Positions 27,307 through 40,016 of a DNA stretch of 64,000 bases are shown piece after piece. Position 1 is the first letter of the stretch. Every line of letters begins with the position of its first letter. Location of the stretch: assembly GCA_963702475.1 (NCBI GenBank), contig CAVPCT010000005.1:224001-288000 (forward strand), given 5' to 3'. A program made the position numbers and the translations under genes. The notes beneath the pieces are model-generated. The model did no database searches. It worked only from the letters and a program-made list of their open reading frames with translations, and had not been told where the DNA came from. This DNA is from an uncultured Thermoleophilia bacterium (GTDB lineage: Bacteria; Actinomycetota; Thermoleophilia; UBA2241).

Positions 27307-29794
27307 TCAGCGTGCCGTGAGCAGGGTCACACCGGGCACCTTCTGCGCGTTGCCGGACCTGTCGACTGCTGAGAACGTCAGCGTATACGCACCTGCCGCC
27401 GGCGCCTTCCAGGAGCACGTAGCCGTGGTCCCCTGCTTGACCCAACCCGGGGACAACGTCGTCAACTGCGTACCGGCGGCGTCGGTCACGCCGACGGTGA
27501 CCTTGACGGTCGCGCTGTAGGCGTCGCGGACGGTGTACGAGACCTTCGCGGTCTTGCCGGCCTTCACCGAGAGCGTCGAGGGCACCGTGAACTTCGGCGG
27601 CGTGAGGTCGACCGTGACCGGCACGCTGACGGCGCTGACGCCCTGGTTGCCGTCGGCCACGACCTTCAGGCGGTAGGCGCCGCTCACCGGCGCGCCGCCG
27701 CCCGACAGGGCACCGTCCCAGGCGGTGTTCTGGTCGCCCGCGGCGAGGGCGCCCAGATCGATGACCCTGACGGTCTCCTCACCCTTCAGCACGCGGACCT
27801 TCACGTCGGCCCGCCGCGTGAGCTTGAACGCCAGGGACGCCGCGTCCTTTACCCCGTCGCCGTTGGGCGAGAACGCCACCGGCTTGAGCACCGGGAACCC
27901 CAGCGTGCGGTCGACGGTCACACTGCGCCGCACGCTGTCGCTGTTCCCGGCCAGGTCGCGCATCTCCACGACGATGACGGTCTTGCCCTCGGGCGCGTCG
28001 ACAAGCTTGCCGTTGTCGTTCACGCGCCCGTCCCAGGAGACGGTCTTGCGCGCCGGGCCGATGCTGCGCCACGCGAGCACCGTGCGCACGACCCGGTCCT
28101 TGTCGTCCAGCACCGTGACCCGCGCAGTGCCGCTCTCGCCTGGCTGGAAGCTCACGCCGGCGACGTCGTCCTGGCCGTCGTCGTTGGGGCTGAAGGTGCC
28201 CGGCTCGACGGACGCGCTCTGGAGCTGCGGGGGCGTCGTGTCCACGCGCACGACCGCCGTCGCCGGCCGCGCGTCCCCGTGCCCATTGCCGGCGCTGAGC
28301 GTCAGCGTGTAGTCGCCATCCGGCACGATCCCGCCGTCGTTGTCGCGACCGGACCATGTGGTCTCCACCGCGGTGCCTGAGCCGCTCACACTGCGCACCA
28401 GGGCGTCGACCGCGTTGCGCACTTCAAGCTTCCAGTCGGCCTGCTCCGAGAGACGGCAGGTCAACGTGACCCCGTCGCGCACACCGTCGCCGCCGGGGCT
28501 GATGTACTCGTCGTCGAGATCGACGTCGTAGATCTTCGGCTGGCCCGTCGCCTCCACCGTCTTGCGGACGCCCGGAAGCAGCGCGTACAGCTTGTTGCCG
28601 GGGCACTCGGTGTAGTTGGCGTCGCGGTGGCCGGAGATCGCGGCGAAGCCGACCTTCTCGCCGCTGGAGAACTTCTCCCCGTAGCCGCACGTCAGCGTCG
28701 CCCGGCCCAGCGGGTCGATGTGGTGGACATCGAGCTTCCAGGCGAGGAGCGCCTCGAGCGCGCGCACCGAGACGGTGGTGGGCGCCGCCTTGCTGTACGT
28801 GCCGATCACCGACACGCCCACACTCCCCGTGTTGAAGCCCAGCACCTGCGCGCCGATCACGCCCTTCGTGATGCCACCGGACCGGCCCTCGTAGATGGTG
28901 CCGTACCGGTCGATGAGGAAGTTGTAGCCGATGTCGCTCCAGTGCAGCGAGCGCGTGTGGTAGTAGTACGCGCCGCGGACGACCGACGCCGCCTCGCCGC
29001 GCCCGTAGTCGTTGCCGCTGGCGGTGTGGTGGACGAAGGCCATCGTGGGGGTGGCGTAGTCCGGGGAACCGGTGCGGTACGACTCGTCGGCGCCCCACTC
29101 TTCGCGAGTCACGATCGCCGGCTTGTCGGTCATGGCCGCCGCCGGCGGAGCAAGCTGGAGACCGGCGATCGCGGCGACAGTGCGGCGCAGCACGCCGAGC
29201 ACGGTGGCGCCGGCGTCGGCGCGCTCGGTGCTGTCGATGGCCACCACGCGCACGTCGCGGAGGGCGGCCGGCGCAGCGGAGCCGTCCGCCGGCCGGGCCG
29301 CGATCTGCACGAAGCGCCCCGGACCCGTCCACAAGGCCTCGGTGAACGCCTGTGGCCTGCCCGCATCGCCGTCGGCCTGCACGTCCAGCGAAGTCGTGTA
29401 CCAGCGGCTCCAGGCGTCGCCGTCGAGGCTCGTGCGCAGATCGACGAGCACGCCGTCTGCGTGCTCGGGCACTGCGCACGTGACTCCGAGCATCGTGAAG
29501 CGCAGTCCCGCGTCGAGCGTGACGGCGGCAGCGCGCGGCGGGGGTAACACCGGCGCTTGCGGGCGCCGTCGCGTCATCCCGTACCGCCGCGCGTGCGCGA
29601 GGGACCGCCTGCTCCAGCGTGAGCCCGCCGGCGACCTGCAGCGTGGCCGCGTGTACCTGTGGCGTGCGCAGCCACGCGGCCACCGCGTCGCTCACGCGCG
29701 GCGCGCACCAGAGCGCGGCGAGCGCCGCCGTGAAGGTGAGGATGGAGACGGCCGCCGCACAGGCGACCCGCTTGTGGGATCGAGGTCTCGCCAT
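27307..29794 (-). CDS. N-acetylmuramoyl-L-alanine amidase (Amidase_2/PGRP) with FlgD/Ig-like repeats; frameshift near 29530-29580
   Basis: VHHTA, WSDIGYNF, GHRD..TECPG; repeated SPNGDG/WDG; signal-bearing N-terminus in adjacent frame starting 29794. Confidence 0.8.
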
Positions 29795-30015
29795 GTCGGT
29801 TCCGGCAGACGTCAGCTTCGACAGGGTAGCACGGAATCCCCCGGGCACCGACCCGGCGGCCGTGAGTGGAGCGGCCACCGGCGGTGCGCCTCGAGGGCGT
29901 CCTGCCCCGCTGCCCAAGGAACGGACGGGGGCCGGAGCCCCTCAAGGGACGGCGGGCGGCGGGGCGCTCATGCGCCCCGCCGCCCGCCGGACCGCGCAAG
30001 TCCGAAGCCGCCGCG

Positions 30016-31437
30016 TCAGGAGACGGGTGCCTTCTCTTTGCGCGTCGCCTTGCGGATGGTGTTGGTGCGCGCCGGCGTCTCGGCCGGTTCTTCCTTCTCC
30101 GCACTCAGACAGCTCCAGATGGGGCTGTAGAGGTGGTCGACGGCGCTGGCATACTGGTCCAGCTCGTCCTGAAGGTCGGTGATCATGACGTCCCCGCCGG
30201 GGTGCGTGGGCTTCGCGCCGGTGGCGGCCACGATCTCACGCGCCTGCGTGGGATTGTCGATCCACATGCAGGGCATGAGCAGGTTGTGGTTGAACGGCTG
30301 CCGCGCGCGGATCTCCCGGAAGAAGTCCGAGTTGAACGCCTCGAGGAGGCTCACGTCGTGGATGTTGTCGGTGGCGAAGTGCGTGAAGATGCACGGCTCC
30401 ACCCAGCCGCCGCTGTTGATGTGCATGTAGTGCTTGCCGGCGATGCAGCCGTTCACCCAAGGAGCGTCGCCCCAGAAGTCGATCGGGAAGATCGGCTTGG
30501 TGTCGCGGATACGGTGGATGTCGATGCGGAACTGGTTCCGCTCCTCCGCCGTCAGCATCAGGCTGGTGTCGGGATCGCGACCCACCGGCATGTAGAGGAA
30601 ATGCCAAGCCAGCATGGCGCCCTTGGCGACGAGCGGGTCGATGAACTCGTCGCTCACTATGGCCTTCCACGTGTTGCGCGTCACCGTGCACGAGTAGCCG
30701 AACAACACGCCGGCCTCGCCCAGGTGATCCATGATCTCCATGACCTGGTCGTGTACGCCTTCGCCGCGACGCTGATCGGTGAGCTCCGGGGAGCCCTCGA
30801 GACTCAGCATGGGGGCGATATTGCCGATACGGGCCAGCTCGTCGATGGTGTCATGATCGAGAAGCGTGCCGTTGGTGAACACCTGGAAGTAGGCGTCCTT
30901 GTTCTCCTTGGCGAAGTCGAGCAGCTCGTCCCACATGAACGGCTCGCCGCCGAGCATGGTGAACAGGTAGACACCCATGTCGTTGCCCTCGTCCACGATC
31001 TTCTGCATCAGACGGCGGTCGAGGTCCTGGTCCATCTTGTATTCCGATGCGTAGCAGCCCTCACAGGTGAGGTTGCAGCGCATGGTGGGGCTCATGAGGA
31101 TCGTCGTCGGCGCATTGCAGCCCGTCGTGTCGATCAGTTCACGCCTCTTTGCCACGCCGCGAAGAAGAGTATTAACGATAAGACATTCGATGAAGCGGTC
31201 GCGGCAGCGCGGGCTGAGTCGGCTGGTGACGTGCTTGGCGATGGTGAGCGCCGGGTGGTCGTCCTGCACCTTCTCTGTGACGAAACGTACTGAGCCCTTG
31301 TACTGGTCGGGCGTGATCTTCTCCGCCAGGTTGAACGCCTTGACGATCTTGGTCTTGTCGTCGCTGGCGGCCAGCTTGAGCATCTGATTGACCACTTGCC
31401 TCTGTACCGTAGTGTAGAGGCCGTCCGTCCGGCTCAT
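30016..31437 (-). CDS. Radical SAM/SPASM-type enzyme
   Basis: CNLTCEGC, GGEP, GCIAG...GWVEPC...PC; AAGGAGGAG RBS before ATG 31437. Confidence 0.9.
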   Translation of the reverse strand: MSRTDGLYTTVQRQVVNQMLKLAASDDKTKIVKAFNLAEKITPDQYKGSVRFVTEKVQDDHPALTIAKHVTSRLSPRCRDRFIECLIVNTLLRGVAKRRELIDTTGCNAPTTILMSPTMRCNLTCEGCYASEYKMDQDLDRRLMQKIVDEGNDMGVYLFTMLGGEPFMWDELLDFAKENKDAYFQVFTNGTLLDHDTIDELARIGNIAPMLSLEGSPELTDQRRGEGVHDQVMEIMDHLGEAGVLFGYSCTVTRNTWKAIVSDEFIDPLVAKGAMLAWHFLYMPVGRDPDTSLMLTAEERNQFRIDIHRIRDTKPIFPIDFWGDAPWVNGCIAGKHYMHINSGGWVEPCIFTHFATDNIHDVSLLEAFNSDFFREIRARQPFNHNLLMPCMWIDNPTQAREIVAATGAKPTHPGGDVMITDLQDELDQYASAVDHLYSPIWSCLSAEKEEPAETPARTNTIRKATRKEKAPVS

Positions 31438-31755
31438 TGATCTCCTCCTTTCACGCTTCTCCGCGCCCGTGCTCGGCGGACGCGAGGTTATCGGCCTCGT
31501 GGAGACCACGGTGAGGGGACGAGACGACGCAGCGTACTGCCGCTTGCCTCGGGACACCGGCTCCCCCCGGTGGTCTTCGAGCAACCATGCCCGACATCCT
31601 ATCACCCTCGCAGCGGGTGACGAAGGCTTTCGTGGTGTTGGGCACACTCTACTCCAGCGTCCCGGCCCCGCACGTCGGCCGTGCTGGCAACACTTCACTG
31701 GGACATTCGTCTATACGGCCCTCATGTTCATCGCGCATGCGGCCGATACCGCCTA

Positions 31756-31833
31756 TCGACAAAGGCAAACCTGTCGTGAGGCAGGGACGCAAAGCCAGAG
31801 GTCTTGAAGTGCTCAAGATAGCTCGGTTGCCGG
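31756..31833 (+). ncRNA. Cyclic di-GMP-I (GEMM) riboswitch
   Basis: AAAGGCAAA-CCTGTC-GTGA-GGCAGG-GACGCAAAGCC...GGTC...GATAGC..GGTTGCC matches the aptamer layout including a GNRA loop. Confidence 0.85.
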
Positions 31834-31962
31834 TTCTGACCAGCTCCGCGATCGCGGATGTCTTCGTCTGCCTTCAACCCCTGGCCGCCGTTCCCGCCTC
31901 ACGTCTGAGCTGAGTCCACCGGGCGCCGCCGGACGCGCCCTGGAGACAGAGGGGGTACCGCA

Positions 31963-33627
31963 GTGAAGGCCAGACTCAGATGCGTCAGGTGGCTGCTCCT
32001 GGCGTGCGTGCTCGTCGCGCTTCTCACGCTACCCTCCACGGCGCTCGCCGACGGTGAGCCGGCAAGAAAGGTCGACACCAGCGTCCAGACGGTGCTGGAG
32101 GCCACGGGTGGCAAGACGGCCATCCCGGTCATGGTCGAGGCCCCGGGCGCGCTCGACCAGGTCAAGGCGACCATCCCCCTCGGCGTCGCGATCACCGACA
32201 TCCCCCTTGTCGACGGCCTCGCCGCGTGCCTGACCCCCGACGAGATCAAGTCCCTGGGCAGCGCCGGCTTCGTGACGTACATCGTCGCCGACAACCTGGT
32301 GCATGGCCTGACCTACCAGAGCACCATGGACATCACCAACCTCACCATCGGGCTGGGTGATGTCCCGTCGCCTGCCGACGACGGCCCAGACGGCGCCGGG
32401 GCGACCGTGGCGATCATCGACACCGGCATCGCCACCACCAGCGACCTGGGCGCGAGCCGTATCGTCGGCTGGAAGGACTTCGTCAACGGCGAGGCCGCCC
32501 CGTACGACGACGCCGGGCACGGTACCTTCGTCGCCGGCCTCATCGCCGGCGACGGCAGCGCTTCACTGCCGCTCGAGAACGGCGGCACGGCCAGAGTGCA
32601 GTTCCGCGGCGTCGCTCCGGCCGCGAACGTCGTCGGCATCAAGGTCCTCGACGAAGTCGGCCAGGGTCGCAGTTCGGCCCTCATCGCAGGTATCGCGTGG
32701 GCCATCACCCACAAGGACGAGTACGGCATCCGCGTCATGAACATCTCCATCGGCGGCAACCCCGTCTCCTCGGTGACCAAGGACCCCGTCGCTCGAGCGG
32801 TCGAGGCAGCGTGGCGCAGCGGCATCACCGTGGTGTGTGCTGCAGGCAACGAGGGTGAGTTCGGCCCCGGCAGCATCCTGTCGCCCGGCAACGACCCGTT
32901 CGTGATCACCGTCGGCGCCGACGACACCATGCTGACCGCAGAGACCGGCGACGACCGCATCGCCGCCTACAGTTCGGTCGGTCCGACGCTGTTCGACGAG
33001 ATCGCCAAGCCAGACGTGATCGCCCCGGGCAGACGCCTGGAGTCGCTGCGCGCCCCCGGCTCCTTCCTCGACGTCAACTTCCCGGACAACATCGTCCCGC
33101 TGTCCAGTTACGACACGTCCCCGACGACCGGCGCCGAGTCCGCCTACCTCAGGCTGTCCGGCACCAGCGCTTCTGCGCCGGTGGTCGCCGGCGCTGCCGC
33201 CCTGATGATAGGAGAAGACTCCTCGCTGACCCCCGACGACGTCAAGGTCCGGTTGATGACGACCGCTGACCCGGTGGCAGGAGCCACGACCGCCCAGCAA
33301 GGCTTCGGCCTCATCGACGTCGACGAGGCGCTCGAGAGCACTGCCGTCGCCGACGGCTGGGCGCTCTCCGCGACGCTCGGTGACGGCAAGAAGACATTCA
33401 AGGCCGGGGACTACAACAAATGGGAGAAGCGTGCTTGGGAGAAGTATGGGTGGACCAAGTACAAGTGGACCAAGTACAAGTGGACCAAGTACAAGTGGAC
33501 CAAGTACAAGTGGACGGAAGTCGTCTGGACGAAGTACAAGTGGACCAAGATCGACTGGACCAAGTACAAGTGGACCGAGTACGACTGGGCTAAGTACAAG
33601 TGGACGATCCTGATCGAAGGTCAGTGA
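31963..33627 (+). CDS. Secreted S8 subtilase with C-terminal Trp-pentapeptide repeat tail
   Basis: Signal peptide; triad IIDTG / GHGT / SGTS; AAGN oxyanion; (KYKWT)n tail. Confidence 0.92.
   Translation: MKARLRCVRWLLLACVLVALLTLPSTALADGEPARKVDTSVQTVLEATGGKTAIPVMVEAPGALDQVKATIPLGVAITDIPLVDGLAACLTPDEIKSLGSAGFVTYIVADNLVHGLTYQSTMDITNLTIGLGDVPSPADDGPDGAGATVAIIDTGIATTSDLGASRIVGWKDFVNGEAAPYDDAGHGTFVAGLIAGDGSASLPLENGGTARVQFRGVAPAANVVGIKVLDEVGQGRSSALIAGIAWAITHKDEYGIRVMNISIGGNPVSSVTKDPVARAVEAAWRSGITVVCAAGNEGEFGPGSILSPGNDPFVITVGADDTMLTAETGDDRIAAYSSVGPTLFDEIAKPDVIAPGRRLESLRAPGSFLDVNFPDNIVPLSSYDTSPTTGAESAYLRLSGTSASAPVVAGAAALMIGEDSSLTPDDVKVRLMTTADPVAGATTAQQGFGLIDVDEALESTAVADGWALSATLGDGKKTFKAGDYNKWEKRAWEKYGWTKYKWTKYKWTKYKWTKYKWTEVVWTKYKWTKIDWTKYKWTEYDWAKYKWTILIEGQ
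33421..33606 (+). repeat. 15-bp coding repeat encoding 13 Trp at period 5
   Basis: TGGACCAAGTACAAG four perfect copies at 33451-33510 flanked by diverged copies. Confidence 0.95.
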
Positions 33628-35165
33628 CGACGATCCCGGCCACCCACCTCGACACCGAACACGAGACGGCCGTGCGGAAACGCACGGCCGTCTCTGTCTC
33701 TGTCTTCGTCGCACTCGTCTCCGTCGCGGCGGGCGCGGCTGTCCTTGCGGCGCTGCTCGACGACCCCGCCCCGCTCACGGTGGACATAGTCGCGTTCATC
33801 ATCCTCGCGACGGTGGCCGACCTCCGTGAGGTCAAGATGCCGCTGGTCGGGATCGTGACGCTCTCGTTCGTGCCGGTCCTCGCAGCGCTCCTCGTCCTCG
33901 GTCTCTGGCCGGCACTGTTGTGCGCGGCGGTGTCCGGACTGACCAGCGCGTGGTACATGCGAGACCCGGTGAAGATCGTCTTCAACGTGGCCAATTACGT
34001 CGTCTCGACATACCTGGCCGGGATCCTGTACCTCGCCCTGGCTCCTCCAGACGGGGCTTTCATGACGAAGGTGCTCCCCACGGTCGCGGCGACGGTCGTC
34101 GATTTCGCCGCCAACACGGTGCTCCTGGCAGTCGTGATCTCGCTCGCGACGCACGGCAATCCGATGGCCGTCTGGAGACAGAACTACCAGTGGGGCCTGC
34201 CCAGCTACCTTGCCGGCTCCACCCTGGCACTACTGCTGGCCGCGCTCTACCTGTGGCTCGGCGTACCCGGCATGCTCCTCGCCATCCCCCCGGCGTACCT
34301 CATCTACTACTCCTACGACATCTACATGAAGCGCGCGAAGGACCGGCTCACGTTCGACGCGGAACGTGACTCCTTCCACGCCGAACTCACCAAGTCGACG
34401 CAGCTGCACGATGAGCTCCGTGCGGCACAACTCAAGGTGGCTGCGGAGATCGAGCGCGCCAAACGCATCCAGACAGACCTCCTGCCCGCCCGCACCCCAG
34501 ACGTCGGAGGGCTCGCCCTCACGCAGCGGATCGAGTTCCTCGGTGAGATGGGCGGCGACTACTACGACTACATCCCCTTCCGCGACGGACGGCTGGGCCT
34601 CGTGTGTGGCGACGTGATGGGCAAGGGCCTCGCGGCAGCCCTCATCATGGCCATGGCGCGGTCCGTCCTGCACTCCGCGATCGGTCCGGGCAGGTCGCCC
34701 GGCGACGTCCTGGCCGAGGTGAACGACGCCCTGGCACGCGACCTGGAGGGCCAGCGCCTGCCGTACTTCCTCACCCTGGTGCTGGCCGTGTACGACCCGT
34801 CCACGCGCCACCTGTCGGTGGCCGGCGGCGGCCACAACCCTGTACTCGTCGTGTCGTCGAACGGCATCGAGCGCGTGCCCTCACGCGGCGCCGCGCTCGG
34901 TGTGCGCACCGGCCTGCAGTTCCCGGAGGACGACTTCGTCCTCGACCCCGGCGACACAGTCGCCCTGTACACCGACGGCATCACTGAGGCGCGTGACCCC
35001 GCCGGCGAGCTCCTCGGACAGCATCGCCTCGAGGCGATGCTGTCCGAGGCGGACACTGACTCGCTGGACGCCACCCTGGAGTCGGTCTGGGAGCGCGTGG
35101 CCGCCTACCGCGGAGGAGCGGCCGCGACCGACGACGCGACGCTCCTGCTGGCGCGCATGCGGTAG
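33624..35165 (+). CDS. Multi-TM sensor fused to SpoIIE/RsbU-type PP2C phosphatase
   Basis: GTGA overlap with subtilase stop; ~7 TM; GGDYYD, GDVMGKG, YTDGITE, DDATL. Confidence 0.9.
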   Translation: MTTIPATHLDTEHETAVRKRTAVSVSVFVALVSVAAGAAVLAALLDDPAPLTVDIVAFIILATVADLREVKMPLVGIVTLSFVPVLAALLVLGLWPALLCAAVSGLTSAWYMRDPVKIVFNVANYVVSTYLAGILYLALAPPDGAFMTKVLPTVAATVVDFAANTVLLAVVISLATHGNPMAVWRQNYQWGLPSYLAGSTLALLLAALYLWLGVPGMLLAIPPAYLIYYSYDIYMKRAKDRLTFDAERDSFHAELTKSTQLHDELRAAQLKVAAEIERAKRIQTDLLPARTPDVGGLALTQRIEFLGEMGGDYYDYIPFRDGRLGLVCGDVMGKGLAAALIMAMARSVLHSAIGPGRSPGDVLAEVNDALARDLEGQRLPYFLTLVLAVYDPSTRHLSVAGGGHNPVLVVSSNGIERVPSRGAALGVRTGLQFPEDDFVLDPGDTVALYTDGITEARDPAGELLGQHRLEAMLSEADTDSLDATLESVWERVAAYRGGAAATDDATLLLARMR

Positions 35166-35200
35166 GCCGACCGGACGGCCGCCCTGCGCGCGGGCGGCAC

Positions 35201-37297
35201 TCAGCGTACGGTGAGCTCGGCCGACCCCACCTGCTTGGCGCGATTGCCGGCGATGTCGGTGGCCGTCACCCGCCACGTGTACACGCCTTTGGGCAGCGTC
35301 GCCTTGAAGCGGTACCTGAGACCGGTGTTCACGCGGCGAGCGCCCAGCCCGACGGTGCGGACCGTCGTCCCGTTGCGCCTCACCTGGATGGTGACGGTGG
35401 CGCTGCCGCAGGTCGGGGCCGCATCGTCGACGCGGTAGTGCAGCGTCACCATCTTGCCGGCCTTCACCGTCGCAGGGTCTGCAGTGGTCCGTGGGACAGA
35501 CGTGTCGATATTGACGTAGCCGGTGCACGTCGTCTCCGCGGCCCCGAGCACGTCGACCGACGACCACGCCACCGCATGGCTTCCCGCGCCCGACACCGTG
35601 AACGGCGCGCTGTAGGCTTCGGCCGCCGAGCCGTCGACGGAGTAGCTCGTGCTCGCGACGCCCGCCCCCTCATCCACGGCCTTGAGCGTCACGGTCAGTG
35701 GAGAGTTGCGCCAGCCGGTCGTGGGGCCCGCAGCAAGCGACGGACTGGCGGTCGTCACCGGAGGCGAGTCGTCGGTGTTCACGTAGGCGACGTGGCGGGT
35801 CTCCCGGTTGCCGGCCACGTCGACCGACCAGTAGACGACGGCGTGACTCCCTCCGCCGGCCACGGTGAACGGCGCCGTGTAGGTTGTCTCGGAGCCGCCG
35901 TCCACACTGTAGCGCGTCACGGACACACCCGAGAGATCGTCGCTGGCCGAGAGGCTGACCGCGCGCACGGTCGGGGCCCAGCCGCCTGTGGGACTGACCG
36001 CCAGCGGTGGTTCCGCGGTCGTCACTGGAGGCACGACGTCGATGTTCACGTAGCCGTTGCGCGGCGTCTCCTCGTTGCCCGAGGCGTCGACCGAGTGGTA
36101 GCCCACGCGGTGGCTGCCCGGAGCGGCGACGACGAACGGGATCAAGTACAGGGCGGGCTCCCCATCGTCGAGCGTGTAGTACGTGGCCGCGACAACCGAG
36201 CCGGCGTCGCCGGCCGACAGCGTCAAGGTCACAGCCGACGTGCGCCACCCTGAGGTGGGATCGCCCGCCAGCGCCGGACTGACGGTGGTCACGGGCGGCA
36301 GACCGTCGATGGAGAGTCTGCGGACGGTGTCGTTGCCCGTGTCGGCGACGTACACGTTCCCCGCAGCATCGCAGGTGACGCCTTGAGGACCGTCGAACCG
36401 CGCCTCTGACCCCGCGCCGTCGACGCTGCCGGACACGTCGACAGCGCCCGCCACGACAGCAGCCGAGCCGCCGCCCGCACAGCGCCGAATGCAGTCGTTG
36501 TCGGTATCCGCCACATAGACGGTGCCGGCGGCATCGCAGGCGACGCCGCCGGGATAGCTCAACGAGGACGCCCCGGCGATCTCCACGACGCTGCCGCCGG
36601 TGAGCTGGAGGACACGGCCGCCCCCTGTGTCCGTGACGTAGACGCTGCCGTCGGGTCCGCACGCCACACTCTGCGGCGAGTCCAGACCGACCTCTGGTCC
36701 TGCCACCGTGGTGACCCGACCGGACGGCGTCACTTTGCGCACCGCACCGTTGCCGACATCGGCCACGTAGACGTTGCCGTCCGCATCGCAGGCCAGGCCG
36801 GCGGGGTAGCTGAACCGTGCCGTGGCTCCGAGACCATCATCGGCCCCCTGCTCGGCGGCCGCGCCTGCGAGCGCGCTCAGTGACCCGCCCTCGATGATCC
36901 TGTAGATCACGTGGTTGTAGGTGTCCGAGACGTACACGGTGCCGGCGGCGTCGCAAGCGATCCCCTGCGGGTACGAGAGACCCGCCGAGGCTCCCACGAG
37001 TGTGCTCACCGTGCGGTCCGGCGTGATCCTGCGCACGGTGCCGTTGTCGGTGTCGGCGACGTAGACGGCGCCGGCCGCATCACAGGCAAGGGCGTAGGGG
37101 CTTCCGAACCTGGCCGCGGCGCCCACGCCGTCGGCGGTGCCGGCGACGCCTGCGGATCCAGCGAGCGTGGTGACGCTCACGCCGAGCCCCGATGCTGGGG
37201 AGCATACGGAAAGCGCCAGGCAGACGCATGCCGCCGGGACACCGAGGGCCAGAGCCAGCCATCGACCCGCCCGATGAGAAGACGACACCGTGTTCAC
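35201..37297 (-). CDS. Secreted NHL-repeat beta-propeller with repeated Ig-like domains
   Basis: Repeated PxGxACDAAGxVYVADT; three PPVTT...Y.VDG...GSH.V...SVD units. Confidence 0.85.
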   Translation of the reverse strand: MNTVSSSHRAGRWLALALGVPAACVCLALSVCSPASGLGVSVTTLAGSAGVAGTADGVGAAARFGSPYALACDAAGAVYVADTDNGTVRRITPDRTVSTLVGASAGLSYPQGIACDAAGTVYVSDTYNHVIYRIIEGGSLSALAGAAAEQGADDGLGATARFSYPAGLACDADGNVYVADVGNGAVRKVTPSGRVTTVAGPEVGLDSPQSVACGPDGSVYVTDTGGGRVLQLTGGSVVEIAGASSLSYPGGVACDAAGTVYVADTDNDCIRRCAGGGSAAVVAGAVDVSGSVDGAGSEARFDGPQGVTCDAAGNVYVADTGNDTVRRLSIDGLPPVTTVSPALAGDPTSGWRTSAVTLTLSAGDAGSVVAATYYTLDDGEPALYLIPFVVAAPGSHRVGYHSVDASGNEETPRNGYVNIDVVPPVTTAEPPLAVSPTGGWAPTVRAVSLSASDDLSGVSVTRYSVDGGSETTYTAPFTVAGGGSHAVVYWSVDVAGNRETRHVAYVNTDDSPPVTTASPSLAAGPTTGWRNSPLTVTLKAVDEGAGVASTSYSVDGSAAEAYSAPFTVSGAGSHAVAWSSVDVLGAAETTCTGYVNIDTSVPRTTADPATVKAGKMVTLHYRVDDAAPTCGSATVTIQVRRNGTTVRTVGLGARRVNTGLRYRFKATLPKGVYTWRVTATDIAGNRAKQVGSAELTVR

Positions 37298-37507
37298 GGG
37301 AACACCTCCCCGGTCCGTGCACGAGAGGGCCGGCACCCATGGGGGGCGATGCCGGACCCGCGACACCTGCGAAGCGCCCCTCCACTGCTATCGGCACCTC
37401 GGGCGCACGCGCTTAGGAATCCGCGAGTCCGGAGGCCCACGGGGCGCCGTCTTGTCTGAGACGCTGCGACGCGAGAGTATCTAGGCGACCCCCGATGAAA
37501 GGTCGCC

Positions 37508-38284
37508 ATGCCCGACCCCACAGTCGAAGCGCCCGCCAAGCTCCAGGTCTTCCGCTACCGGCCGTCCAACGGCCGCATCCACGCGGTCATCGGGGAACTG
37601 GACGAGGGCCTCCGTCGGACGGACCTCATCGCCTATGCGTCTGACGCGCTCGAGAGCGAGACGTTCGTGTGCCACGCCGTGGCGAACGACGACGAGAACG
37701 TGGCGGACGAGCTGTGCTTCGTCCCTCAGGGCGACCACTGCGACATCCTCAGCATGCGCACGAGCGGCTGGAAGCGCTACCACGGCGACCACCGGCGCAG
37801 CCTCGTCGAGATCCTCAACACGCTGGCCGCGGCGGTCGCCTGCGGCAGGCTCAGGATCCTGGATGAGGAAGAGCGCAAAGCCGAGGTGGCGCGGGGTGAC
37901 GTGCTGCGCAAGATCGAGATCGTCGACAGCGGCGCGCTCGCCCAGGCCCGTGACGCCGTGCAGCAGGCGCTCGAGCTCCTCGGCATCGACGCCTTCACCG
38001 TCCAGCGCACCACGCTCTGCGTCTCGGAGGCGCTCACCAACATCCTCATCCACGGCGGCGGCCGCGGGGCGATGACCCTGCGCCGCCTCCCCGGCCGCCT
38101 GCGCATCGTCGTCGCCGACGCAGGACCCGGCCTCAACTTCCTGAACTGGATAGAACCACCACACGTGGGCGGGCAGGCCTCCATGGGGTATGGCTTCAAG
38201 ATCATCCTCGACAACCTCGACGCGGTCGCACTGCACACCGGCCCCGACGGCACCACGCTGGTGCTCGACCGCGTCATAGACTAG
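37508..38284 (+). CDS. RsbW-like anti-sigma/Ser kinase (HATPase_c) with N-terminal extension
   Basis: SEALTNILIHG, DAGPG, GYGF. Confidence 0.8.
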   Translation: MPDPTVEAPAKLQVFRYRPSNGRIHAVIGELDEGLRRTDLIAYASDALESETFVCHAVANDDENVADELCFVPQGDHCDILSMRTSGWKRYHGDHRRSLVEILNTLAAAVACGRLRILDEEERKAEVARGDVLRKIEIVDSGALAQARDAVQQALELLGIDAFTVQRTTLCVSEALTNILIHGGGRGAMTLRRLPGRLRIVVADAGPGLNFLNWIEPPHVGGQASMGYGFKIILDNLDAVALHTGPDGTTLVLDRVID

Positions 38285-38296
38285 GCAGGGACGAGC

Positions 38297-38608
38297 ATGC
38301 TCCGCACATCTGTGACCCAGGGCCCCGCGCCCACGGTGTTCCTTACCGGAGAGATGGACCTGGACTGCGCCGACGTCCTCCGCGAGGCAGTCGCGGAGGC
38401 GACTCGCGGCGCCGAGACGGTGGTGCTGGACTTCTCCGGTGTGTCCTTCATCGACTCGTCCGGGACCGGCATCTTCGTGCGGCTGTGCCTCGACCTGAAG
38501 AGCCAGGGCACGCCCCTGGTGGCGCGCAACCTCACGCCGGCGGTGCGCGGCGTGTTCGACATGCTCCGTGTGCGCGACCTCGTCGGCGAAGAGGTGTTCC
38601 CCGACTGA
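38297..38608 (+). CDS. STAS anti-sigma factor antagonist (RsbV-like)
   Basis: GEMD and DFSGVSFIDSSG with phospho-acceptor Ser. Confidence 0.9.
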   Translation: MLRTSVTQGPAPTVFLTGEMDLDCADVLREAVAEATRGAETVVLDFSGVSFIDSSGTGIFVRLCLDLKSQGTPLVARNLTPAVRGVFDMLRVRDLVGEEVFPD

Positions 38609-38687
38609 CGAGCGCCTGCCGGGCGGAGCGGGTCAGCGCCTCCGTGCCGGCCGACCCGGCGTGCGACGCCCGCCGCCCCGCTCCCCA

Positions 38688-39008
38688 TCAGTCGTTGTGA
38701 AGCGGGCCGACCCCGGCGAGGACGACGAGCGTGGCCAAGTCGCCGTCGACCGACACGCTCGACACACACGCCTCGCCCTGGTAGCAGCGGCCGTCACGGG
38801 TGACGATGGAGAGCGACATGGACGAGCCGTGGTGGAGGTGGTCGAGGTACTCCTGCACCTCCTGGGGAGACTCGACCCGCAGCGTCCAGCACGCCCCGGC
38901 GTCGCTCACGATACGCGCGTTCAGGAAGCCCATCTCACGATGGTCGTGTCGCAGCTTGAGCAATCGTGCCTGAGGCATGTCCACGCCGGCCCCTGTGTTC
39001 AGGATCAT
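38688..39008 (-). CDS. Hypothetical protein
   Basis: ORF with host-like codon usage; start uncertain. Confidence 0.45.
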   Translation of the reverse strand: MILNTGAGVDMPQARLLKLRHDHREMGFLNARIVSDAGACWTLRVESPQEVQEYLDHLHHGSSMSLSIVTRDGRCYQGEACVSSVSVDGDLATLVVLAGVGPLHND

Positions 39009-39100
39009 CCTCTGTCTCACACCATACCCCCGGCGTGTGGCCGATAGACGGCCGGAGACACGAAGACCGGCCCCGAAGGACCGGTCTGGCGGGCGAAGAC

Positions 39101-39176
39101 TGGTGGCGAGGGTCAGAATTGAACTGACGACACCGCGATTTTCAGTCGCGTGCTCTACCAACTGAGCTACCTCGCC
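39101..39176 (-). tRNA. tRNA-Phe (GAA)
   Basis: GGCGAGGTAGCTCAGTTGGTAGAGCACGCGACTGAAAATCGCGGTGTCGTCAGTTCAATTCTGACCCTCGCCACCA, 76 nt with CCA. Confidence 0.97.
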
Positions 39177-39302
39177 ACGCGTGCTCCCGCTGGAGCGCGC
39201 CTCATGCTACCGACGAGGCTGCGCGGGTGCAACCGGCGGTCCGGGCGGGCGGCGTCCGTGCTGACGCCGCCCGCCCGGACCGCCTTCCCGATGCCGCCCG
39301 GC

Positions 39303-40016
39303 TCACCAGCCCGTCGTGTCCAGCTCGGACTGCTTCTCGACGCGCTCCGGCTCTTCCTCGGGCAGGAACACCTTGATGAGGTCCTTCTCCCTGCCGTGCG
39401 GCACGAGGCACAGCACGTAGTCACCGGCGAGGATCATGGTGGAGCCGCGCGCCACCAGAGCCTGTCCGGCGCGCACGATGGCGGCCAGCAGCACGCCCGA
39501 CGGCAGGTCGATGTCCTGCACGTAGGTGTCGGCGAACGGGGAGCTCTCGCTCACCTCCAGCTCGACGAGCTCGAGGCCTTCACCGCGCAGCGAGAGCAGG
39601 TGCACGAACTTGTGCACCGGCAGCTCGTGCATGATGAGCCGCAGCATGGCGGTGGTGGCGCACACGGTGTTCTTGATGCCGAGAAGGTCGAACGTCGCCT
39701 GGTTGAACGGGTTGTTGACGCGCGCCACGATCTTTGGCACCCCGAACTTGAGCGTGGCGATCTGCGAGATGACGATGTTGTCCTCGTCGTCGCCCGTGAC
39801 GGCCACGATCATGTCGGCGCGGCCGATGCCGGCCTTCTCGAGCACCCACACCTCGGTGCCGTCACCGAACACGAGGCACTCCTCACCGAGCTCCTCCGCC
39901 ACGAGGTCGTACCGGGTCTTGCGCTGCTCGACGAGGACGATCTCGTGCCCCAACTGCAGCAGCTGCCGGGCGGTGTTCAGACCGACCTTGCCCGCGCCCA
40001 CGATGAGTACGAACAC
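39303..40016 (-). CDS. trkA: TrkA family protein (RCK-N and RCK-C)
   Basis: GAGKVG, TGDDEDN. Confidence 0.9.
   Translation of the reverse strand: MFVLIVGAGKVGLNTARQLLQLGHEIVLVEQRKTRYDLVAEELGEECLVFGDGTEVWVLEKAGIGRADMIVAVTGDDEDNIVISQIATLKFGVPKIVARVNNPFNQATFDLLGIKNTVCATTAMLRLIMHELPVHKFVHLLSLRGEGLELVELEVSESSPFADTYVQDIDLPSGVLLAAIVRAGQALVARGSTMILAGDYVLCLVPHGREKDLIKVFLPEEEPERVEKQSELDTTGW

Follow-up and report, generated by a model that had tools for sequence, protein, structure and literature searches.

The Agr system consists of a precursor (AgrD), a protease (AgrB) and a polytopic receptor (AgrC), and in Bacillus the Phr pentapeptide signals are cut by subtilisin, Epr and Vpr. Here a locus with comparable parts is described from a stretch of 64,000 nucleotides (hereafter the window) of an uncultured Thermoleophilia bacterium (GenBank assembly GCA_963702475.1, contig CAVPCT010000005.1, positions 224,001 to 288,000, forward strand). 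The gene of a secreted subtilase (peptidase family S8), which ends in a tail with tryptophan at every fifth residue, is followed directly by the gene of a membrane sensor-phosphatase with a MASE9 and a PP2C domain. The likeness to Agr and Phr lies in a secreted S8-type protease, a five-residue unit, an all-helix membrane sensing part and the co-encoding of precursor, protease and receptor. The locus differs from them in that the C-terminus of the protease itself would serve as precursor, in 6 to 36 tandem copies and with no separate small gene, and in that the putative receptor domain is MASE9 with PP2C, cyclic di-GMP (c-di-GMP) enzyme or kinase outputs.

Other described systems share single parts of this layout. 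LapD-LapG likewise pairs a membrane c-di-GMP-type signalling protein with an extracytoplasmic protease encoded beside it, and is likewise linked to c-di-GMP. LapG belongs to the cysteine proteases and the periplasmic part of LapD is a folded domain, whereas the protease of the present locus belongs to S8 and its sensor has no sizeable outer domain. In addition, the sensor of the window is without HAMP, GGDEF and EAL domains, and PP2C and kinase outputs cannot receive c-di-GMP. A PP2C domain, a HATPase_c_2 kinase and a STAS protein with a DSSG motif are all present, as in the RsbU/SpoIIE-RsbW/SpoIIAB-RsbV/SpoIIAA systems; the differences are the MASE9 input, the position of the sensor gene behind a protease gene, the lack of an adjacent sigma factor gene and scores that stay under the NCBIfam equivalog cut-offs. 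c-di-GMP-I (GEMM) riboswitches stand ahead of genes for secreted or surface proteins, and in the window, too, an aptamer of the GEMM clan occupies the 5' leader of a gene for a secreted enzyme; this aptamer scores as the GGC variant RF03167. Pentapeptide-repeat proteins (PF00805, PF13599) have the same period of five, and the small residue after the tryptophan (W+1) and the often hydrophobic one at W+3 could map to their i-2 and i positions; unlike in known pentapeptide repeats, tryptophan is the fixed residue of the tail. A Trp-rich C-terminal domain, W_rich_C (PF07483), is listed as co-occurring with subtilisin (PMC2605481).

A literature search, which did not cover the supplements of the MASE9 preprint, found no description of a Trp-period-5 tail or of an S8-MASE9 pairing. 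This is in keeping with a preliminary description of the window, made from its letters and open reading frames (ORFs), whose reader knew of no characterised system with this layout. S8, MASE9, PP2C, STAS, HATPase_c_2 and RF03167 are known families; the protease-sensor module is regarded as new in kind, and would work by the mechanism proposed below. MASE-type sensor domains are common in bacterial signalling and almost none has a known ligand; the Trp-tailed secreted protease is a concrete candidate input for the MASE9 family. The tie to c-di-GMP is twofold, through sensors with domains that make or break c-di-GMP and through the variant riboswitch ahead of the pair. Arrays were found in about a third of the sampled Actinomycetota genomes, which indicates that the module is frequent. 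Together, the Trp-tailed protease and the membrane sensor point to an undescribed transmembrane signalling route in many actinobacteria.

Subtilase and tryptophan-periodic tail

The last 68 residues of the subtilase contain 13 tryptophans at an exact period of five, a periodicity far beyond chance, and end in a conserved ...WTILIEGQ. In the register of the tryptophans, the tail consists of the units WEKRA, WEKYG, WTKYK (four times), WTEVV, WTKYK, WTKID, WTKYK, WTEYD, WAKYK and WTILI; the preliminary description had given the same number, period and unit sequences. The underlying DNA is a 15-nucleotide tandem repeat of 10.4 copies at positions 33450-33605 (Tandem Repeats Finder).

Residues 144-449 were matched to Peptidase_S8 (Pfam PF00082) at E 4.3e-45, over profile positions 1-288 of 288. 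In an alignment of 44 sequences D153, H186, N296 and S402 were invariant; from their DTG, HGT and GTS contexts, D153, H186 and S402 are taken to be the catalytic triad and N296 the oxyanion asparagine. By its sequence, the N-terminus resembles a signal peptide for Sec export. The nearest solved chains were 9ues_B and 3afg_A ('Subtilisin-like serine protease'), at E about 1e-46. The TGA of the subtilase gene (33625-33627) overlaps the GTG of the sensor gene (33624-33626) within the string GTGA, and an in-frame GTG at 33600 offers an alternative sensor start. Both a secreted subtilase with an intact D/H/S triad and this stop-start overlap had been noted beforehand, and both were borne out.

Tails related to that of the window were collected with a word-indexed search using the last 85 residues, in which 78 protein clusters out of 124 candidates were obtained at E up to 1e-3. 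All 78 carry PF00082 and such a tail. In the window's clade the tail has the form (WTK[YF][KRAQ])n, with a few acidic units interspersed, and ends in WT[TI]L[IL][EQ]GQ. Its architecture matches position by position between the window and the loci L003 and L007; between the window and L003 the change from Tyr to Phe is concerted across all tail units, and the WTRYR units of L006 differ from one another at synonymous sites. Because positions are kept, the Tyr-to-Phe change is concerted and the L006 units are synonymous-site variants, the array is, as judged from these alignments, not a product of random slippage. Between clusters the tail is 86-88% identical, compared with 74-79% for the whole protein.

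For a wider view, the units of 46 tail-bearing S8 proteins were compared with equal weights. Each protein has 6-36 units (median 13) of the general form W-[STA]-[GSA]-x-[SA], in which W is fixed, W+1 is S, T or A in 75% and W+2 is G, S or A in 70%; the residue before the tryptophan (W-1) is S in 46% and A in 14% of units, S and A together making up 60%. With the synonymous and concerted changes above, this pattern is read as selection on the unit. The KYKWT repeat for which the preliminary description had named the system is present in the window, and against this general unit it is a basic outlier. Tail charge spans strongly basic (WTKYK), neutral (WSGNS) and acidic (WADAS, WDGMS) forms.

A Pfam search with the tail of the window returned nothing at E up to 10, neither the pentapeptide-repeat families nor W_rich_C, and when four tails were searched at the same threshold the sole match was to Pentapeptide_4, at E 0.38, for L053. 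Nothing was found among PDB sequences at E up to 10, and no match at 0.9 or more in the ESM Atlas. AlphaFold2 modelling of the full subtilase (44 sequences) gave a mean predicted local distance difference test score (pLDDT) of 47.5, with 21-28 for the tail blocks and no confident tail fold; folded alone, the tail had a mean pLDDT of 47.3 and no beta-helix.

Irregular arrays were also seen. L005 has an in-frame TAG within the array, for which real slippage or an assembly error in the repeat are possible, and one continuous ORF spans both S8 tail and sensor in L059 and P0152 (slippage or assembly error possible). In many tails of other clades (L042, L038, L026, L083, L089, P0095, P0155) ...WG stands at the very C-terminus. 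WSASQ and WSPSE units occur in L049, and also in L020 and L023; the L049 array lies within a 2,235-residue Beta_helix/NosD protein that is not an S8 protease.

Linkage of protease and sensor genes

The preliminary description had suggested that homologues with periodic-Trp tails be collected and checked for the same membrane domain downstream with variable outputs, and had held that a lack of such linkage would refute its reading. Three samples of loci were examined. In the window's clade, a MASE9-PP2C gene stands right after the tail-S8 gene in all eight loci with downstream DNA (window, L002, L003, L004, L006, L007, L008, L127). The order in L002-L008 is amidase and radical SAM (both on the opposite strand), riboswitch, tail-S8, MASE9-PP2C, kinase and STAS.

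The class sample consisted of 20 loci of 16 kb each, taken at the first listed place per genome with neighbours not known beforehand; one non-S8 protein (L049) and one locus at a contig edge were removed, leaving 18. In 11 of the 18 the tail-S8 gene is followed on the same strand by the gene of a large polytopic signalling protein, which is a GGDEF-MASE9-HD-GYP sensor (L044, L046, L047, L048, L052, L054), a GAF-GGDEF-EAL sensor (L042, L058, L059) or a histidine kinase (L051, L053). L058 and L059 are syntenic with each other. As a control, the other ORFs of at least 250 residues in the same 20 loci were scanned, and 2/98 carry GGDEF, EAL, HD_5, HisKA or SpoIIE.

The phylum sample was taken from other actinobacterial families (15 loci). 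L085 was left out for a run of N, and L093 and L094 because no array-bearing ORF over 250 residues passed the filter. All 12 array-bearing ORFs were S8 proteases, and 8 of them are followed on the same strand by a sensor, namely a PAS- or GAF-kinase (L082, L083, L084, L086, L088, L096) or a GAF-GGDEF-EAL protein (L091, L092). Outside the phylum, the Armatimonadota locus L009 has an S8 protease at 36% identity, whose acidic tail is rich in Trp at a period of about 6; a MASE9-like hybrid kinase (MASE9 at 23 bits, below the cut-off) follows it after 19 nucleotides. The linkage looked for was thus found in the clade, class and phylum samples, with variable outputs, and an absence of linkage between tail and sensor was not what emerged.

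Paralogues were inspected at three loci picked on purpose and kept outside the tallies (L130, L131, L132). In two genomes whose first-listed copy has no sensor, another tail-S8 paralogue precedes an HD-GYP sensor (L130, L132). The window's own genome (G000) has two MASE9 hits and two S8 hits, of which one of each forms the adjacent pair; the tail-less S8 gene is followed by ilvC. BioY and a LuxR-type regulator adjoin the second MASE9 gene (L061). Start and stop codons of the S8 and sensor genes overlap or are separated by gaps of 4-50 nucleotides in the window, L042, L053, L058, L084 and L086. We consider it probable, with good confidence, that protease and sensor are functionally coupled.

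Two further arrangements were noted among the HD-GYP-linked modules. In L048 (6320-10204) two tandem tail-S8 genes lie ahead of one GGDEF-MASE9-HD-GYP sensor gene. The modules of L044, L046, L047, L048, L052 and L054 are found near genes for MurT, a GatD-like GATase, two sigma-70 factors and an HflX-type GTPase.

Membrane domain and outputs of the sensors

Residues 53-229 of the window's sensor were assigned to MASE9 (PF20972) at 28.2 bits against a cut-off of 24.3 (30.2 bits in the genome search), and residues 321-512 to SpoIIE/PP2C (PF07228) at E 1.5e-51. A crude hydropathy scan gave 5-7 membrane segments in the N-terminal part. Among 203 homologues, SpoIIE was present in 120/120 of the matches listed. 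In 45 sequences D312, D315, D330, D451, D503 and D504 were invariant, as were conserved Asp/Gly motifs; these aspartates presumably form the PP2C metal-binding motifs. In the preprint that describes it, the only paper found on this domain (bioRxiv 10.1101/2021.11.05.467447), MASE9 is given eight predicted membrane segments including an intramembrane hairpin, with short outer loops and no outer domain; its ligand is stated there to be unknown, and binding within the membrane is proposed. Of the membrane PP2C receptor of the preliminary description, the membrane domain, now with a family name, and the PP2C domain stood; the role of receptor is putative.

Sensors with different outputs were compared by profile-profile alignment (hhalign). 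The window's sensor family aligned with the N-termini of the kinase group at a probability of 98.8% (E 4e-17, 213 columns) and with the GGDEF-EAL group at 83.7% (E 8e-6). For the HD-GYP group, whose first membrane block was used, the probability was no higher than 24.8%; the Pfam MASE9 match of that group falls in the second membrane block. Pfam MASE9 was at or above its cut-off in L047, L048, L052, L054, L086, L130 and L132, and a motif K..FN[ILV][AG][NQ][YF] is common to the groups. By these comparisons the sensors appear to share a MASE9-like membrane domain, with PP2C, GGDEF-HD-GYP, GAF-GGDEF-EAL or histidine kinase outputs.

The catalytic regions of 36 S8 proteins were placed in a maximum-likelihood tree, from which L002, L005, L007, L008, L059, L060, L085 and L127 were omitted as partial, frameshifted or redundant. 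The tail-less S8 protein was placed on a very long branch, and the PP2C clade formed a single group (99/99). In the other well-supported clades, proteases paired with kinase, EAL or HD-GYP sensors were intermixed with each other and with sensor-less ones, from which it appears that outputs were exchanged while the S8-sensor pairing was kept. The charge of tails and of sensor loops was compared in 15 pairs with a crude hydropathy and charge script; the loops were near-neutral and no pattern was seen.

Distribution of array-bearing proteases

An exhaustive HMMER search with the tail against 1.84 billion representatives yielded 298 hits at E up to 1e-3. Of 24 longer hits that were scanned, 15 were S8 peptidases ending in Trp-period-5 arrays, and the short hits resemble C-terminal fragments of S8 proteins. 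Units of other S8 arrays differ much (WTGVR, WSAHA, WTGNS, WTSAS, WDGIS, WNALR). All 34 array-bearing ORFs scanned from genome loci matched Peptidase_S8 (16 + 12 + 6), and a separate small precursor gene was not found, the repeats lying within the S8 ORF. Many tail-matching 'proteins' (P0089-P0148, with WTELN, WTGLD and WSEVK units) resemble translated satellite DNA, probably eukaryotic.

At the DNA level the pattern was defined as seven TGG codons at 15-nucleotide spacing. It was present in 127/401 Thermoleophilia and 68/201 Actinomycetota genomes; a reversed-pattern control also matches some genomes, so that these counts include some simple repeats. Seven of the genomes are flagged as unpublished (G344 in the Thermoleophilia tally; G401, G417, G445, G483, G538 and G562 in the Actinomycetota tally) and all matched; excluding them, the counts are 126/400 and 62/195. 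No locus and no other result was drawn from these seven.

Riboswitch and leader

The aptamer ahead of the subtilase gene matched RF03167 at 71.2 bits against a gathering score of 59, with all model positions 1-80 matched. The preliminary description had placed a c-di-GMP-I riboswitch here; an aptamer is indeed present, and it belongs to the GGC variant family RF03167 rather than to canonical c-di-GMP-I. Since the ligand of c-di-GMP-I-GGC is, to our knowledge, not established, calling the subtilase 'c-di-GMP-gated', as had been done, is an assumption.

In 6 aligned leaders the aptamer was conserved, together with a small hairpin around positions 31848-31861. Further along the leader, positions near 31888-31905 could pair almost fully with the aptamer's 5' half, and the GTG start is preceded by GAGGGGG as ribosome-binding site. 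The minimum-free-energy fold of the leader was not significant (z -1.78), and in a simple scan no promoter and no T-tract terminator were found in it.

RF03167 was found in 56/61 genomes of the window's family, in 50 of them above the gathering score. Of the best 30 hits (30 genomes), 29 lie directly upstream of an orthologue of the S8 gene and the thirtieth at a contig end, a link between riboswitch and operon that provides a handle for finding the riboswitch ligand. No riboswitch was found at 10 other tail-S8 loci, and as far as the sequences go it is restricted to the clade of the window. The window's genome has one more RF03167-like element (L128, G000:C5:108500-114500), which scored 53.5 bits, below the gathering score, and lies upstream of two prepilin-type genes with N_methyl motif; a shorter, 75-nucleotide form of it recurs in many family genomes. 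Because this weaker element precedes prepilin-type genes, the riboswitch fits a putative surface-behaviour regulon.

Proposed mechanism and alternatives

The reading proposed for the locus is a tentative one, quite possible and short of probable: that the array bears a signal, being cut after each tryptophan into identical pentapeptides which are sensed by MASE9. It sharpens an idea of the preliminary description, in which peptides or a ligand domain freed from the tail by the protease would be sensed by the co-translated receptor. The Sec-secreted protease would cut after each tryptophan, in cis or between molecules, and the cleavage would yield many copies of one pentapeptide, T-K-Y-K-W in the window. 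These would be sensed by the MASE9 domain at or within the membrane. Subtilase and sensor would be translated from one mRNA behind the c-di-GMP-I-GGC riboswitch, and a second-messenger signal would decide whether the pair is made. Once activated, the sensor would switch its PP2C domain, the STAS protein would be dephosphorylated and would then bind the RsbW-like kinase, and the kinase's target would be freed. The pair would in this way act as an outside-to-inside signalling unit with the Trp array carrying the signal. Anatomy, conservation and gene linkage are what the sequences show; tail cleavage, sensing by MASE9, signal direction, riboswitch ligand and final target are what we infer.

Cutting after tryptophan is suggested by the unit itself: its only fixed features are the tryptophan and the small residue that follows it, as for a P1-P1' site, and the general unit contains no other large hydrophobic residue. 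Residues of this kind are preferred by subtilisins at P1. It is also suggested by units that are homogenised within a protein while their number varies widely, and by the lack of a predicted tail fold. Sensing of peptides is suggested by a MASE9 domain without an outer domain; polytopic sensors such as AgrC bind peptides. If the tail is a fused multi-copy peptide precursor, this would be a new way of making signalling peptides. A fuller version, in which the array is a polyprotein fused to its own protease, dozens of identical pentapeptides per molecule are the MASE9 ligands of a widespread actinobacterial cell-to-cell or self-signalling that feeds c-di-GMP enzymes, kinases or a PP2C partner switch, the whole is riboswitch-gated in the window's clade and the peptides are perhaps cross-linked by the radical SAM enzyme, is rather unlikely to hold in all its parts.

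Several observations weigh against a released pentapeptide signal. Orthologues have their variant units in the same places, and conservation extends to the C-terminal ends (WT[TI]L[IL][EQ]GQ, with ...WG in several other clades); by these features a defined structure or a recognised terminus seems the better description of the array. The HD-GYP-linked group has an acidic, Pro-rich extension beyond the array. Paralogues of the same genome have near-identical units (WADAS, WAEAS), which is awkward for specific signals. Others concern the pairing itself. No sensor follows the S8 gene in 7/18 class loci (L041, L043, L045, L050, L055, L056, L057), in 4/12 phylum loci (L087, L089, L090, L095) or in a third paralogue copy (L131), and the other MASE9 gene of the window's genome (L061:5118-6551, minus strand) encodes a 477-residue MASE9-HD-GYP protein with no S8 neighbour. 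With flanking genes in common, the six HD-GYP class loci are counted as a single evolutionary event. Only about five independent pairings are seen, and the gene calls are crude ORF picks of our own.

The conserved end and the positionally conserved variant units would suit a tail that stays uncut and binds the outer face or the membrane part of MASE9 as a tethered ligand or docking element, so that the sensor reports on or holds the protease. Gene linkage fits this equally, and the overlaps or gaps of 4-50 nucleotides fit matched amounts of the two products; 6-36 near-identical units would be unusual for a docking surface, no tail fold is predicted, and the outer loops of MASE9 are short according to its description (bioRxiv 10.1101/2021.11.05.467447). 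We hold tethering to be unlikely. Improbable to us as well is a Trp array that holds the protease at a wall glycan or at the membrane surface as an envelope anchor, with the sensor linked otherwise: the protease might trim the sensor or its ligand, or the sensor might control the protease from inside, in the manner of LapD-LapG. Modules that bind cell walls or sugars commonly contain aromatic-rich repeats, the GGDEF-EAL or GGDEF-HD-GYP sets of many partner sensors could bind c-di-GMP, and sensor-less tail-S8 paralogues occur, as expected if the tail is independently useful. Against such an anchor, a range of tails from basic to acidic is hard to fit to one envelope polymer, no known wall-binding family was matched at E up to 10, and control from the inside would misfit the clades with PP2C or kinase outputs, which do not act as receptors of c-di-GMP.

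Gene order alone might also account for the adjacency, if the two genes were inherited side by side with no tie in function and the tail were a low-complexity appendage that evolves fast. Two related groups supply most of the loci, the six class loci above are one syntenic event, tandem repeats expand easily, and frameshifted or interrupted tails occur (the in-frame stop of L005, the fusions of L059 and P0152). On the other side, the pairing spans S8 clades at about 36% identity, four output types and a second phylum, at a control rate of 2/98; the codons of the units change synonymously while their amino acids are retained, and tail identity (86-88%) at least equals that of the whole protein (74-79%). 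Mere synteny is regarded as very unlikely. For the window's clade only, the radical SAM/SPASM enzyme could first cross-link the K/W-rich tail to give a product like a ribosomally synthesized and post-translationally modified peptide, which would be compatible with the other readings. In 28/30 family loci its gene and the S8 gene flank the riboswitch on opposite sides, its best solved relatives (SkfB and 5v1q_A) are peptide-modifying enzymes and the W-T-K unit resembles the W-G-K cross-link motif. Yet the family models score far under their cut-offs and the tail has no KxxxW spacing, L127 and L005 retain Lys-bearing tails without a radical SAM neighbour, 0/98 neighbour ORFs in other clades match Radical_SAM, the gene is in an operon with the amidase gene on its own strand, and the modification would have to precede Sec export. 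Cross-linking of the tail is considered very unlikely.

Features of the locus and neighbouring genes

Table 1. Features around the subtilase-sensor pair, in window coordinates
Feature	Coordinates	Strand	Basis
c-di-GMP-I-GGC riboswitch aptamer	31755-31835	+	Rfam RF03167
Leader from aptamer to start codon (putative expression platform, 127 nucleotides)	31836-31962	+	Sequence, fold, leader alignment
Secreted S8 subtilase, 554 residues	31963-33627	+	Pfam PF00082
Trp-period-5 tail of the subtilase, residues 487-554	33421-33624	+	Repeat reading
MASE9-PP2C membrane sensor-phosphatase, 513 residues	33624-35165	+	Pfam MASE9 and SpoIIE
NHL-repeat/Big_13 surface-protein gene	35201-37366	-	Pfam
RsbW/RsbA-like serine kinase (HATPase_c_2), N-terminal extension of about 130 residues	37508-38284	+	Pfam PF13581
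STAS-domain anti-sigma-antagonist-like protein, DSSG motif	38297-38608	+	Pfam STAS, STAS_2
Radical SAM/SPASM gene, divergent	30016-31698	-	Pfam Radical_SAM, Fer4_12, SPASM
N-acetylmuramoyl-L-alanine amidase gene with FlgD_ig domains	27307-29577	-	Operon partner of the radical SAM gene

The kinase matched PF13581 at E 2.1e-12 and the NCBIfam model RsbA_anti_sig at 51 bits, under its cut-off; the STAS protein reached E about 3e-15 in Pfam and 51.1 bits against a cut-off of 53.45 for NCBIfam ant_ant_sig. The kinase gene stands directly after the PP2C gene in L002, L003, L004, L006, L007, L008 and L127, and the S8, PP2C, kinase and STAS genes are contiguous in L002, L003, L004, L006, L007 and L127. 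The opposite-strand NHL gene, which separates the PP2C and kinase genes in the window, is placed after the STAS gene in L007. No sigma factor gene was found among the ORFs at 28000-40000.

The true start of the radical SAM gene is probably internal, and positions 30016-31440 were used. Its best solved relatives were SkfB (6efn_A, E 2.3e-10) and 5v1q_A (E 4e-8), the latter presumably the Lys-Trp cross-linker SuiB. The radical SAM and amidase genes form an operon on their own strand, divergent from the riboswitch. A streptide-type KxxxW substrate was rejected, since the spacing from K to W in the tail is 1, 3, 6 or 8 and never 4. The enzyme scored 37.6 bits compared with a cut-off of 500 for the KxxxW maturase (TIGR04080) and 44.2 bits compared with 650 for the WGK-type maturase WgkB (NF050035).

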